From IMG/VR virus record IMGVR_UViG_3300033148_007251, positions 11,280 to 75,279 of that record: a stretch of DNA of 64,000 nucleotides, one strand, 5' to 3'. The DNA comes from a virus. Below, piece after piece: positions 8,256 to 15,043 of this stretch (positions within the stretch are counted from its first letter, which is position 1; every line of letters starts with the position of its first letter). The position numbers and the translations under genes were made by a program. Below the pieces are notes generated by a model. It had not been told where the DNA came from and did not search any database. It saw nothing but the letters and a program-made list of their open reading frames with translations.

Positions 8256-9032
8256 TTATTTAAATTTAGCTCTACTAAGATTAGCTCCACTAAGATTAGC
8301 TCTACTAAGGTTAGCTTCACTAAGGTTAGCTCTACTAAGGTTAGCTTCACTAAGGTTAGCTTCACTAAGGTTAGTCCAACTAAGATCAGCCCAACTAAGA
8401 TCAACTCTACCAAGGTTAGCTTCACTAAGATCAGTCCCACTAAGATCAGTCCCACTAAGATCAGCTCTATGAAGATCAGCTCCACTAAGATCAGCTTCAC
8501 TAAGATCAGTCCCACTAAGATCAGCTCTATGAAGATCAGCTCTATGAAGATCAGCTCCACTAAGATCAGCTCTATGAAGATCAGCTCCACTAAGATCGGC
8601 TCTATGAAGATCAGCTCCACTAAGATCGGCTCTATGAAGATCAGCTCCACTAAGATCGGCTCCACTAAGATCGGCCCAACTAAGATCACCCCAACTAAGA
8701 TCAGTTTCACTAAGGTTAGCCTTATCAAGGTTAGCCCTACTAAGATCACCCCAACTAAGATCAGTTTCACTAAGGTTAGCCTTATCAAGGTTAGCTTCGT
8801 TAAGGTTAATCTTACTAAGATCAGCTCTACCAAGGTTAGCTTCACTAAGATCAGTCCCACTAAGATCCGCCCCACTAAGATCCGCCCCACTAAGATCCGT
8901 CCCACGAAGATCAGCCCCACTAAGATCAGCTCTTATTTTAATAGCATTTCTTAGAGTTTTTCTTATTGTTTTTAAATTATCTTCGAATATTATTTTTTGA
9001 GTTTTTTTATGTATTATTTTCATAATTTTCAT
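8256..9032 (-). CDS. Pentapeptide repeat protein
   Basis: Continuous A(D/N)LSG/ADLHR pentapeptides encoded by 15-bp DNA repeats. Confidence 0.9.
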   Translation of the reverse strand: MKIMKIIHKKTQKIIFEDNLKTIRKTLRNAIKIRADLSGADLRGTDLSGADLSGADLSGTDLSEANLGRADLSKINLNEANLDKANLSETDLSWGDLSRANLDKANLSETDLSWGDLSWADLSGADLSGADLHRADLSGADLHRADLSGADLHRADLSGADLHRADLHRADLSGTDLSEADLSGADLHRADLSGTDLSGTDLSEANLGRVDLSWADLSWTNLSEANLSEANLSRANLSEANLSRANLSGANLSRAKFK

Positions 9033-9562: not shown

Positions 9563-12500
9563 TTAATGTAATGTCTGTCCTTCATTATTAACTTCGCAAA
9601 AATCCTTTGATGTAACAGCATATGCGTATTCTTGTTCAGACACTACATCTATTAATGCATTCCAGTCAATTTCCCCATAATTAAGAGGGATATTATGCAA
9701 AACTATATATTTGGCTCGTATTCTATCTTGCCCATAAACATCATCATCATAATAAGGGTTTTCATAAAATTTAAAACTTTTTGTTATGTTGTATTTCATT
9801 TGTTGCCATCCTTTTTAATGATTATATTGTTTCTATTTCGCAGCCATCACCCCAAGTATCAGCAAGAGCCCAATTAACAGCGTGGCGAAGTTCGTTTTTA
9901 TTTGCATTTGGAAAATAATGAATGAGGTATTCAGTACAATCATTAATAATATTTCCTGAATAATGTTTCATGTCTTGCAGTGCTTTGGCTGCAGCGTTAT
10001 AATATTTTTTGTTATAATTTTTCATATTATTTTCTCTTTTTTAATTATATTTTTTATCTAATGTTTTTAAAAATGCCTTTAAAGATGCCTTTGATAATTT
10101 ATTTTCACTTTTATCTTTTTCTATTATTAATTCCTGGTTAAAGACTTCATCATAGGCTTCGGCCATTGATTCAATATATTGTTTATAATTTTTCATTTTT
10201 TTATATCCTCTTGAAGATATTATTGAGTTTGCGCGCTGCTTTTTTTCTTAATACCTCATTTATCATTCGTTTGTGTTCACTCTGACTAAAATATAATTTT
10301 TTTTCTTTTAGGTTTGTTAATTTTTTTTGTCTTTTCATTTTTTATTTACCTCCTTAAGGTTTATGGTTCAAACAAACAGAATTGGTATCCAAGCTATAAC
10401 TATTGCCAGAACTAAAATTATGCAAAATGTCACAAAACAGATTGCCGAAATATCATAAAGTTTAGCCGATTTTTTCTTTTTGTAGGTTTTCGTCTTTTTG
10501 GGGTTAGGATACCTATTTAAATAATCAGATGTTTTTTTTACAGCGATATTAAGATTTTGTTGATTTACCATGAACTATCTCCTTTTTATATAATGTAGAT
10601 TATTTTTTTGTTCTGTAAAAATTTTATATAGCCCGGGGCGTAAATCTTCCATAAGTTGTTTTTCTTTTTCCGTGTACGTGATCCCGAATTTCTGTTCGGT
10701 AGAGAACATCATTCTTATATTGTTTTCTGCCATCACTGTTCTTGCATCATGTGTTTTTTTGTAATGTGTTATTTTTCATGTCGTCCTCTTTCTTACGATG
10801 TATAGTTTCGCTCATCATCGACATTGTGCGTTAATACATATTCACAATCACGAAAGTATATCCATGCCTTCCATCGAGCAAAAAAACTTAATTTATATTT
10901 GACTGAACATCCAATAGTTATTGCCAGCCGTTCCATTTCTTTAATACTTGGCAAATTGTTAATGTAAGTGTTTTCAATTTTTGTTATTAATTCTAATAAA
11001 TTCATGATTCCTCCTATACCAGTTTTACAAGTTTATAGAAGAGCTTTACGATATTTCCATCATCATCCCTAATCATAACGTGCTCACTTTGCACGTCTAT
11101 TTCGAGTAAATGTCCCATTTTGCCAGTATCTACATTCTGACCAAAACCTTTATTGTCATATATTCGTACCCTTTGTCCGTAATAATTCTTCATTTTATGC
11201 CTCCATCTATGCCTTTAAAATTGTCTTTTCTAAAATAGATACTGTTTTGTAGGTCATACTTTACTGGATTTTTACGGTATAACTCCCAAACCTCTATACC
11301 GTCCATGGTGCTATTCCTTACGCCATAGTTTTTAATAGTATCCCCAAAAAAATGCATATTTGATCTTGTAAAATGATAAGGTGCCGTGTGTCTTGTCTGA
11401 TATTTTAATTCTAACGGGGTCATATTAATCCCTCCCTTTGTTGTCGATTTCTTTAAGCTCGCATAGTTCAAAAACATAATCAGGTACCCATGTGTTGCCT
11501 ATAAGTGCCTCCCCATCCTTAAATTCTTTCACGTCATAGACCATGCCGGTCATAAATGCCATTACGTTTTCTTGGCCAAGTTCTACAACATACAATTGTT
11601 TACATAGTCTTTTCATAATGCCTCCTTTATATTCATTTTTTGTAATTCTATTATTCGTTTTGTTAATTCCACAATAGTGAATGGATACCATTCACCGTTT
11701 GGTTTGAATCTACGACATAAAACATTATTAATTACTTTTTCTTCATAATACATAATATCTCCCCTCCTTTATGCCATGAAGTAGTTGTCTTCTTGCACAA
11801 CCCTGTTATAAATTGTTAGAAAATCCAATGTATCAATGATATTTACATTTGATTGTTTAATAGGTTTCTCATTCAGGCATTTAAAAACACCTGGATGTAA
11901 GTCTTCAAGCATGTTTATTTCGGCTTGAGTGTATGTCCCGCCAAATCCTGCCATAAGCTTTTCATTTGTGACTATATTCTTTTTTGCTTTCTTTGTACAG
12001 GAACTGTGTATTTTTGCCATGTTGATTTGTTTCTTAATTTCTTGCATTGTCATTTTATCACCTTTATTAATGAGTTTAAAATTTATTATATGATTTATCC
12101 TTTTTGCCATTATTATTTTCTTTGATTTTGTCATGTTATATCTCCTTTTAATTAAATTACAAACTCCAATATGGTTTTTTATTTCAAATTATCCCATAAT
12201 GTTTTTACCGATATATAATGCTAACTTATTTAGTGCAAGTAATAGTTGTTTTTTTGTAATTTTATTCCCATTTTTAATACGTTTCATTAACAGCGTCTAA
12301 TTTATCCATAAGCATTTCGATATGTTTTGTTTTCTGTACTCCTAATATAGATTCAATTGATACGTTTCCATGTAACAGTTGAACTTTATACACTTTATTT
12401 TGGGCTAACCATATTTCTTTTTTTTCGTTTATCATAGCATCCATATTATTTTGTCTCCTTTTTAAGGGTGTTTCGATTTCAAAAATCTATTGCCTGTTTT

Positions 12501-12990
12501 TATGATTTCAAAAATCTACTTAATGTTCCGTTTTAGGTACGTATTACAATTCTTACAATGAAAACCCAACATATTCTTTTTGATAGCCATAGATAAACAA
12601 TCATCATACTTTCCACAGCATATGTATCTGTTATTAGCGACATCACGTGCATACATAATACCACATTCTGTTATTGTTTTAATTGCTTTGGTCATTGTTT
12701 TTTTCTCCTTATATTTATTATATATATGGGATGTTTTGAGTTAACCATTTTTTGAGTTTTTTTTTACCCGTAAACGTTAGGTCTAATGTATTATATAACA
12801 TTATTACATCTTCATATGATGCAATGATCATTTCATGTACCGCATCATAATAATGGGGTTCATTATCATATCTTTGATATCTCACTCTATAAAATAGAGG
12901 GTTTGGAATTATTTTTAATCTAATTTGGAAGTTGTCACCTTTTAATTTTGTGTTGTGTATACTTTTGTTTTGCAATATCAATATTTCCAT
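9563..12990 (-). other. Cluster of small hypothetical early genes (e.g. 9563-9799, 9822-10025, 10368-10571, 10575-10733, 10793-11005, 11190-11423, 11769-12134, 12718-12990)
   Basis: Closely packed co-oriented short ORFs, most with GGAG/GGAGG RBS; no recognisable domains. Confidence 0.65.
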
Positions 12991-13011
12991 TTTAATATCA
13001 CCTCCCTATAA

Positions 13012-13065
13012 AGTGTTTCGATCTTTAAGATCTCATCAGTGACAGTCACATAACAGCCAGACACT
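13012..13065 (-). ncRNA. Type III hammerhead ribozyme (HH-B)
   Basis: AGUGU-C|UGGC-uguuaugugacu-GUCA-CUGAUGA-GAUC-uuaaa-GAUC-GAA-ACACU; intact core and three stems; predicted cut between 13060 and 13059. Confidence 0.88.
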
Positions 13066-13112
13066 AAGAGCAGTTTAATGACTTGCTGAGGTCATTATAT
13101 TAGATTGTAATG

Positions 13113-13280
13113 TTACTGAATAATTTTTGCTGCCCAATCTGGAACATCCACTTCTTTGCCAGATTTATTTGTAATTTTATAATATCTACCATTATTGCCA
13201 ATCTCAATGGTAGCACTATAAATTTCTTTTTTTGTAATTCCCAACCAGCTTATTAATGTATCTGTTATTATGATTTTCAT
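13113..13280 (-). CDS. 55-aa hypothetical protein between the two hammerheads
   Basis: MKIIITDTLISWLGITKKEIYSATIEIGNNGRYYKITNKSGKEVDVPDWAAKIIQ; AGGAGG RBS; below the ORF-track cutoff. Confidence 0.75.
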   Translation of the reverse strand: MKIIITDTLISWLGITKKEIYSATIEIGNNGRYYKITNKSGKEVDVPDWAAKIIQ

Positions 13281-13298
13281 AATGCTCCTCCTTTTTAA

Positions 13299-13354
13299 TA
13301 ATGTTTCGATTTATAAAATCTCATCAGTAACAGTAATATAACTGTTAGACACTA
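13299..13354 (-). ncRNA. Type III hammerhead ribozyme (HH-A)
   Basis: UAGUGU-C|UAACAG-uuauauua-CUGUUA-CUGAUGA-GAUUU-uau-AAAUC-GAA-ACAUUA; predicted cut between 13348 and 13347. Confidence 0.92.
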
Positions 13355-13573
13355 AGAGCATCCATTAGCTTGCCTTATATAATAAGGTAGAGGCATCCTG
13401 GTATGTCCATTCGGTTCTCAATGCTGTTAGGTTTTTAGTAACCCTGCATGATGGAGTCCTTGACTATTTGTCGAGGCGTCTATTTTTTTATTTCAAACAA
13501 GATGTTTTTTAATGGGTTTACTTGCTGGCACCGTTTCCCGTGTGCCTCTTGTTTGTTCTTGTTTATATAGTAC

Positions 13574-13589
13574 TGCAAACCGTGTGCCA
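13574..13589 (-). promoter_or_regulatory. Sigma54 (-24/-12) promoter
   Basis: TGGCACACGGTTTGCA, exact GG-N10-GC spacing, intergenic. Confidence 0.75.
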
Positions 13590-13730: not shown

Positions 13731-13828
13731 CTGGACAGTCATACACTTTTGTAAATATTTATAATAGAATCAATATATTATAAGATGAATACTCTAAATC
13801 ATACACTCCTGGACAGTCGTACACTTTT
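13731..13828. repeat. 20-bp direct repeat CTGGACAGTC(A/G)TACACTTTT x2, candidate enhancer sites, with an IHF-consensus site between them
   Basis: Copies at 13731-13750 and 13809-13828 (19/20 identical); AATCAATATATTA at 13768-13780 matches WATCAANNNNTTR. Confidence 0.55.
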
Positions 13829-13836
13829 TAACCCTA

Positions 13837-14208
13837 TTATAGATCCTCAAACCATATAATTTTTTTCTTATCTACTATGTTAGGTTTAATATCTTGTTTT
13901 GACTTAGGTTTAAATATTGGTGTTTCAATAGGCTGTGTGTCAATAATGGCCCGTGGTATATATTCTACATAATCATTAATATATTCTTTTATTTGATTTA
14001 CTGGCCAAAACCACTCCCCTCTAATGTGATATGTGGCAAAGCTTCTGTGCAACTCTTGTTCAAATCCTATATCTCCATCAATAGCTTTGATTATAGTTAA
14101 TTGTTCCCATGAACCCGTTTGTAATTGTTTTAGTCTATCATTTATATCTCTACTTGTGTACCCGATTTTAATTGGCCCTGATGTCCCACTTTGTATAAAG
14201 TATATCAT
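13837..14208 (-). CDS. T5orf172/MUG113-type GIY-YIG domain protein
   Basis: IYFIQ...IKIGYT...RLKQLQTG...EQELH..F...RGEWF. Confidence 0.85.
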   Translation of the reverse strand: MIYFIQSGTSGPIKIGYTSRDINDRLKQLQTGSWEQLTIIKAIDGDIGFEQELHRSFATYHIRGEWFWPVNQIKEYINDYVEYIPRAIIDTQPIETPIFKPKSKQDIKPNIVDKKKIIWFEDL

Positions 14209-14690: not shown

Positions 14691-15043
14691 TGATCCGGTA
14701 AAATTTCTATTTAAGACCTGTATACCGGCTATCAAAGTAACAACAGGCATCGGTTGGCTAACCGGTACAATAAATTCAAGCTATCCAATTTCAAATGGCA
14801 TTTGTATCCGTCCATTTGGCCCCGTTCCTGCAACCCAGGGGATCATTGTGAATAAAGAGATTATTTGGAATCTCTTTGCCTCAGTTAAGACAGAACTGGA
14901 TGAGGGCAATCGTTTTGTAAAAAGCGATTCAAACACAATGCGTTTTTTATATGAACTTATGACACGAAGTTGACGACACATACGGCAAAAACAATATCCC
15001 CCTATTTTAAATTTATTTTTTTTAAATTTAAAATAGGGGGATA
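14691..15043 (+). ncRNA. Candidate large structured non-coding RNA
   Basis: Dense nested inverted repeats downstream of a promoter, no credible ORF, ends in a long hairpin. Confidence 0.45.
14996..15043. terminator. Long inverted repeat (terminator or cruciform)
   Basis: TATCCCCCTATTTTAAATTTA...TAAATTTAAAATAGGGGGATA. Confidence 0.6.

Follow-up and report, generated by a model that had tools for sequence, protein, structure and literature searches.

Two type III hammerhead ribozymes, each preceding a ribosome site within a repeated cassette of a phage operon, and their possible role in message processing

The window, by which we mean the whole 64,000-nt stretch of DNA that was analyzed, corresponds to bases 11280-75279 of an IMG/VR virus record of 75,279 bp with direct terminal repeats. 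A set of small minus-strand genes, spaced by only 5-30 nt in the region studied here, diverges from a plus-strand block of terminase, portal, and structural genes that begins near 15.5 kb. Among these small genes lie two hammerhead-like elements, HH-A and HH-B, both co-oriented with the genes, and a third copy that has decayed. The features of the locus, in the direction of transcription of the minus strand, are as follows.

13574..13589, minus strand: sigma-54-type consensus TGGCACACGGTTTGCA (TGGCAC-N5-TTGCA, perfect), about 215 nt upstream of the HH-A cleavage site
13354..13362, minus strand: 5' flank of HH-A, GAUGCUCUU, predicted to pair in the uncut RNA with AGGAGCAUU at 13289-13281 (SD and spacer)
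13299..13354, minus strand: HH-A, type III hammerhead; predicted cleavage 13348/13347, with C17 = 13348
13281..13298, minus strand: tail of the HH-A leader; UUAAAA and AGGAGG (13292-13287), SD GGAGGAG (13291-13285), a 4-nt spacer, then ATG 13280
13113..13280, minus strand: 55-aa ORF downstream of HH-A; no family and no homologue found
13076..13097, minus strand: 7-bp hairpin UAAUGAC...GUCAUUA, located past the 55-aa ORF stop codon and ahead of HH-B, near the 3' end of the predicted upstream cleavage product
13012..13065, minus strand: HH-B, type III hammerhead; predicted cleavage 13060/13059, with C17 = 13060
12991..13011, minus strand: tail of the HH-B leader; UUAUA (5 nt), SD GGGAGGUG (13006-12999, containing GGGAGG), an 8-nt spacer, then ATG 12990
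12718..12990, minus strand: 90-aa ORF downstream of HH-B; no family found
12445..12516, minus strand: decayed third copy; stem II hairpin, GAAAC, stem III strand, and UUAAAAAGGAG retained before ATG 12444

Neither the 55-aa nor the 90-aa ORF had relatives in the viral contigs searched, and the 55-aa ORF had none among 5.8 billion proteins. Upstream of HH-A there are ~480 nt of non-coding DNA, and the final gene ahead of this stretch is a 123-aa ORF (13837-14208, minus strand) with T5orf172/MUG113 (GIY-YIG-like) domains. The sigma-54-type consensus was matched once in the window, compared with 0.04 matches expected. Two 20-nt direct repeats, AAAAGTGTAYGACTGTCCAG, located 140-250 nt further upstream of this consensus (13809-13828 and 13731-13750, both on the minus strand; 19/20 identical, 78 nt apart), could be activator sites. 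Between the terminase genes and the minus-strand operon, where the two gene sets diverge, there is a 47-nt near-perfect palindrome (ATCCCCCTATTTTAAATTT...AAATTTAAAATAGGGGGAT, 14996-15042), which was flagged as terminator-like on the minus strand. Elsewhere on the minus strand, a 258-aa ORF (8256-9032) consists of pentapeptide repeats (A/T/S-D-L-S-G/R/E...) over nearly its full length.

The nearest large terminases are those of Marinitoga viruses and a Clostridium tetani phage, at 52-53% identity. Nine TerL relatives (~55% identity) contained no hammerheads according to Rfam or a stem/core descriptor, and searches with the ORFs and TerL revealed no close hammerhead-bearing relative of this phage. 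A blastn comparison of the region with known phages gave no matches, and pattern scans of genomes and metagenomes pointed to no host; their matches were either hammerheads of an unrelated kind or due to chance.

Both elements adopt the three-helix type III layout, in which stem III is open and stems I and II are closed by loops. In HH-A, the 6-bp stem III is built from the 5' strand UAGUGU (13354-13349) and a 3' strand at 13304-13299. Stem I (13347-13328) comprises 7 bp and a 6-nt loop, and the core is made up of CUGAUGA (13327-13321) and GAA (13307-13305), separated by a 5-bp stem II (13320-13308). The corresponding parts of HH-B are the stem III strands AGUGU (13065-13061) and 13016-13012, CUGAUGA at 13039-13033, and stem II at 13032-13020. 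Its stem I has one U.U mismatch, leaving 6/7 positions paired; the descriptor counts 4 consecutive bp before this mismatch and 5 bp in each of stems II and III. Both copies carry CUGAUGA-G...C-GAA-A with GUC at the cleavage site, which agrees with the conserved type III core as represented by RF00008: C3-U4-G5-A6-N7-G8-A9, G12-A13-A14, the pairs A15.1-U16.1 and G10.1-C11.1, and any base but G at position 17. The stems are AU-rich in both copies, and inspection of the loops (UAUAUU/UAU in HH-A and UAUGUG/UAA in HH-B) found no complementarity conserved in both. The preliminary description had read AGGAGG and ATG 13280 behind stem III of HH-A, and GGAGGT and ATG 12990 behind HH-B; these motifs and coordinates are correct, with gaps of 6 and 5 nt, respectively, between stem III and the motif. 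The two predicted cuts are 288 nt apart, bracket the 55-aa ORF, and would generate processed leaders of 67 nt (HH-A) and 69 nt (HH-B).

We assessed the identity of the two elements with several models. At the gathering score, Rfam gave no matches in the whole window. With relaxed thresholds, RF00008, whose gathering score is 48.5 bits, matched HH-B at only 35.5 bits (E = 2.5e-5), and HH-A was not reported by this model even at these thresholds. The stem/core descriptor selected exactly HH-A and HH-B in the 64-kb window and nothing in 20 shuffles. A covariance model, R1, built solely from eleven hammerheads on other phage contigs, scored HH-B at 38.7 bits and HH-A at 38.5 bits (E about 3e-8), with the next match at 12.8 bits, and found only these two elements across the full 75,279-bp genome.

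Alignment of 56 phage hammerheads to R1 (the matches listed, HH-A and HH-B included) yielded 98.2% of cells paired. The covariation score of these 56 listed hammerheads was 0.93, compared with 0.17 for shuffles and ~0.1 for slid controls, and 304 cells were changed on both sides, compared with ~80 in shuffles. HH-A and HH-B differ from each other at 11 positions, none of which lies in the core (hand count on the alignment). The differences comprise two compensatory changes (A-U to G-C in stem I and U-A to C-G in stem II), two that are wobble-compatible, three in loops, and two that are disruptive. Together, these comparisons leave very little doubt that HH-A and HH-B are genuine type III hammerheads by identity, whose cleavage at the positions given above is predicted.

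A 19-nt stem II/GAAACA motif occurs without mismatches at exactly three sites in the window: in HH-A, in HH-B, and in the decayed copy, which lies 545 nt beyond HH-B. The decayed copy lacks stem I and CUGAUGA, and 29 nt upstream there is a second copy of its stem II hairpin; from stem II through the SD, it is identical to HH-A at 29/36 bases (hand count on the alignment). The copies are homologous from ~25 nt upstream of the cleavage site through the SD, and the homology ends before the start codon, which delimits the duplicated unit as 5' flank, hammerhead, and SD. As judged from these alignments, this unit is duplicated at least three times in the operon. The intact SD of the decayed copy indicates that loss of the ribozyme need not cost the gene its SD. 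In the genome as a whole, two of the many intergenic gaps, plus the one with the decayed copy, hold a hammerhead.

Adjacency to a ribosome site within the window is weak evidence when taken alone, because a packed operon puts any intergenic element near such a site. The weight is carried instead by comparative data. Viral contigs were sampled in two ways, with a pattern taken from the window hammerheads (43 loci) and with the generic pattern GUC...CUGAUGAG...CGAAAC (the matches listed being an arbitrary subset), neither of which constrains the flanks. Filtering by the descriptor or R1 left 54 instances in 31 families at 80% identity among the matches listed. This set lacks independence from the window, whose hammerheads supplied the first pattern but not the generic second one. 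The downstream gap was measured from the fifth stem III pair to where the next ORF of 40 or more codons starts.

Among the matches listed (54 instances, 31 families), the distance from stem III to the start codon had a median of 22 nt (IQR 16-26), whereas the gap back to the previous ORF had a median of 32 nt and was far more variable (IQR 18-153). The start codon lay within 40 nt of stem III in 27/31 of the listed families. This pattern differs from the random placement elsewhere that the preliminary description had named as evidence against its own proposal. Where more than 100 nt of intergenic space was free, the ribozyme was found at the downstream end in 9/11 of the families listed. In an earlier version of the test, with gaps 1 nt short and likewise restricted to the matches listed, the downstream gap was the smaller one in 22 families and the larger in 10 (paired Wilcoxon p = 0.0096). 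We regard this test of downstream-versus-upstream asymmetry as only moderately strong.

On the same measure, the window hammerheads give values of 19 nt (HH-A) and 21 nt (HH-B). The spacing rule extends to contigs that have no SD in the leader (e.g. those with A-rich leaders) and to copies with degenerate cores, and most of the type III hammerheads among the matches listed are single copies that precede a gene at the same spacing. A hairpin of -8 kcal/mol or lower was present in the 32 nt before stem III in 43% of the phage instances listed, compared with 10% of control windows (Mann-Whitney p about 1e-9, with instances counted singly and not by family). In this AT-rich phage the upstream hairpins are weak; they consist of the 7-bp hairpin at 13076-13097 and a 6-bp hairpin at 13373-13387, upstream of HH-A.

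Several known systems share parts of this arrangement. In T7 early mRNA, and in SP82/SPO1 early RNA with its 5' stabilizer, cleavage at RNase III sites is carried out by the host enzyme and produces 5'-phosphate and 3'-OH ends. The likeness would be that a polycistron is cut between genes, the resulting ends carry hairpins, and an SD lies close to the 5' end so created. HH-A and HH-B do not belong to this class, as they are predicted to be RNA-autocatalytic and to leave 5'-OH and 2',3'-cyclic phosphate ends.

A parallel in design is RiboJ, an sTRSV-derived type III hammerhead with a hairpin, in which the ribozyme is placed between upstream RNA and the ribosome site; cleavage strips off the upstream context, and the ribozyme body stays on the mRNA 5' end. 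As in RiboJ, the ribozymes described here lie directly 5' of a ribosome site and would leave a constant leader (predicted 67 and 69 nt). RiboJ carries an added 23-nt 3' hairpin that presents the ribosome site, whereas here no hairpin separates stem III from the SD, only 5-6 unpaired nt. In E. coli, RiboJ increases transcript abundance ~2-fold and protein 2-10-fold (PMC6206723).

In nature, clustered phage and prophage hammerheads that flank single genes cleave both in vitro and in E. coli (Perreault et al. 2011, PMC3088659), and the same authors proposed that they cut phage transcripts into gene-length mRNAs (PMC3088659). Those clusters resemble the present locus in that a phage operon has several co-oriented hammerheads around one small gene, whose identity varies. 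They differ in that cleavage has been demonstrated for them (Clostridium scindens, Azorhizobium caulinodans, and Agrobacterium tumefaciens), whereas that of HH-A and HH-B is predicted, and in that the present locus includes the SD in its duplicated unit and has a decayed copy. By analogy, the hammerhead layout fits the published proposal of phage message self-cutting. The HHphage hammerhead of haloviruses HF1/HF2 is located 13 nt before a start codon, and a 5' end has been mapped no more than 3 nt from its cleavage site (Perreault et al. 2011, PMC3088659). Like HH-A and HH-B, it precedes a start codon, in its case within an early operon of the virus, and it provides a direct natural precedent for a ribozyme-defined 5' end; it differs in being a single, structurally variant hammerhead of an archaeal virus with salt-dependent activity.

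According to a 2019 review (PMC6765202), which repeats the processing, stability, and translation hypothesis for phage hammerheads as an unresolved one, the role of bacterial and phage hammerheads has had that status since 2011. Ribosome sites are discussed neither there nor in the 2011 study (PMC3088659). For this phage alone, our result is an ordinary one, adding two phage hammerheads at the sort of location where they were to be expected, and the family-level spacing rule is a modest addition to the known picture of phage hammerheads.

Hairpins at the 5' terminus are known to protect mRNAs in bacteria, and both RNase E and RNase J are known to favor single-stranded ends bearing a 5'-monophosphate. 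At this locus, each ribozyme would self-cleave after GUC (C13348 and C13060). The upstream RNA would then end in a 2',3'-cyclic phosphate, 12-21 nt past a weak AU-rich hairpin, and the downstream mRNA would open with a 5'-OH nucleotide (U13347 or U13059) that forms the closing pair of stem I, leaving no unpaired overhang. Behind stem I would come stem II and then the stem III 3' strand released by the cut, with the SD beginning 5-6 nt beyond that strand. The type III geometry would keep almost the entire ribozyme on the downstream RNA after the cut. Folding predictions for the 3' cleavage products place the 5' end within stem I and leave the SD of HH-A unpaired; in the predicted HH-B product, the freed stem III strand is able to pair with the SD. 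Each gene would in this way obtain a standard hairpin-capped leader, uncoupled from upstream RNA, without the help of a host nuclease.

In the case of HH-A, the upstream part that would be removed is either a leader of ~215 nt or read-through RNA. The sigma-54-type consensus at this distance suggests that HH-A, if the promoter is used, may trim a leader rather than separate two cistrons, which would bring it nearer to RiboJ. The preliminary description had held that cleavage cuts the early polycistron into units with a structured 5'-OH end. The structured end agrees with the predicted 5'-OH nucleotide, which is paired flush in stem I; the word "early" and the role of HH-A as a gene separator are less well founded, given the sigma-54-type consensus upstream.

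The protection afforded by 5' hairpins and the expression gain seen with RiboJ make processing with a standardized, protected leader the best reading of these data. We lean toward the view that active-type type III hammerheads are held in a repeated cassette (~25-nt 5' flank, hammerhead, and SD) before consecutive small genes for processing that is independent of host nucleases and for a standard protected leader. This reading presumes that the ribozymes cleave in vivo and that stability or translation gains from it. Points that count against it are the sub-threshold or absent RF00008 scores, the AU-rich stems with the mismatch in HH-B, the small number of gaps in the genome that carry the element, and the decay of one copy.

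The preliminary description had argued that such ends are poor substrates for RNase E, an argument that finds no support here, since hosts of the kind suggested by the terminases, such as Marinitoga and Clostridium, depend mostly on RNase J/Y. The nucleases of the candidate hosts could also give the cut the opposite effect. The glmS ribozyme offers a precedent: its 5'-OH product is degraded by RNase J1, and a 5'-OH end can be a decay signal in hosts with this enzyme. As the TerL relatives place low-GC anaerobes within the likely host range, cleavage might down-regulate the downstream genes, either by delivering the 5'-OH product to 5'-3' exonucleolytic decay or by uncoupling these genes from upstream ribosomes. 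This is the least probable of the explanations considered here, since the 5' end would be flush in a 7-bp hairpin, and such ends impede 5'-end-dependent nucleases. Strong SDs directly after the ribozyme, and the raised expression brought about by RiboJ in E. coli (PMC6206723), argue in the same direction. Alternatively, the cassettes could be neutral or selfish intergenic repeats that survive between a stop codon and the next SD and cleave without any benefit to expression. A spreading repeat would be expected to place its hammerhead-SD module before unrelated genes in other phage families, as is observed. It would also account for upstream gaps that are often short too (median 32 nt among the matches listed) and for the presence of only three sites in the genome, one of them decayed with its SD intact. 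It accounts less well for a ribozyme that, when given space, is still found downstream (9/11 listed families, and HH-A, 19 nt from its own ATG despite ~480 nt of non-coding DNA), for purifying and compensatory selection on the core and helices, and for the enrichment of upstream hairpins. We consider a neutral origin unlikely, if deserving of some weight.

Two further proposals make particular use of the flanks and of the pairing of the cuts. In a translational switch, the 5' flank, with its anti-SD-like GCUCUU, would extend stem III and mask the SD until cleavage frees it. For HH-A, the minimum free energy fold indeed contains a 9-bp helix (13362-13354 with 13289-13281), and the predicted accessibility of the ribosome site is 0.255 in the uncut and 0.64 in the cut RNA, a value for the uncut form that only 1/40 shuffled flanks matched; the flank UGCUCUU is also identical in HH-A and HH-B. 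In HH-B, by contrast, only a weak 5-bp equivalent forms, accessibility changes from 0.40 to 0.43 with 17/40 shuffles as low, and the freed stem III strand can pair with the SD after the cut. Across 65 other instances among the matches listed, native flanks behaved as shuffled ones did (0.56 versus 0.57; 31/65 below the shuffle mean), and SD masking was dropped as a general mechanism. We retain it for HH-A alone, because HH-B and these 65 listed instances show no effect, and judge the switch improbable as an account of the locus. The paired cuts could instead excise a 288-nt RNA (13347-13060) carrying the 55-aa gene, to be circularized by a host RtcB-type ligase or by hammerhead reversal, in which case the proximity to the ribosome sites would be secondary. 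Two co-oriented hammerheads around one gene, predicted 5'-OH and 2',3'-cyclic phosphate ends, and an HH-B 5' strand that is identical to that of HH-A and could thus dock on the HH-A body are all compatible with such a product. We find it very improbable: a search of the phage genome found no RtcB or Rnl2-type ligase, and most of the listed phage type III hammerheads are single, yet have the same spacing. Moreover, circular or spliced products were sought from clustered phage hammerheads and none were detected (Perreault et al. 2011, PMC3088659).

Processing with a protected leader can be placed in a wider frame. We tentatively propose, as a possibility that we hold with less than even confidence, that the type III hammerheads of tailed phages form a portable expression cassette (hairpin, ribozyme, leader of ~20 nt, and start codon), a natural counterpart of RiboJ that would set the translation and decay of each gene independently and without host nucleases. 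If so, the spacing rule (median 22 nt; 27/31 listed families) would be the signature of this cassette, and the principle behind synthetic ribozyme insulators would already be present in nature. The tight, one-sided spacing to the start codon makes the question of hammerhead function concretely testable, provided that a full census agrees.

The comparison with other contigs also yielded some observations at its margins. R1 detected hammerhead-like copies with altered cores (CAUUGAUAAG, CUGAAGAUGA, CUGAAUGAG, etc.) at L007:383-434, L030:5266-5319, L062:6507-6557, and L081:3148-3197. Three of these four lie at the usual 18-20 nt from a start codon; the exception, L062:6507-6557, has its nearest called start at a distance of 55 nt. 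In a marine-looking family represented by L141, L170, L059, and L111, a GUGUCUUCAAAGACAC hairpin is followed by a type III hammerhead, an A-rich leader that lacks an SD, and ATG, with at most three such arrays per contig. Finally, an identical type III hammerhead is found 20 nt before ATG at L177:2448-2498 and L178:11679-11729. These two metagenome contigs, of ~0.99 and 0.72 Mb with 37-39% GC, point to an organism or virus with a large genome rather than to a typical phage.
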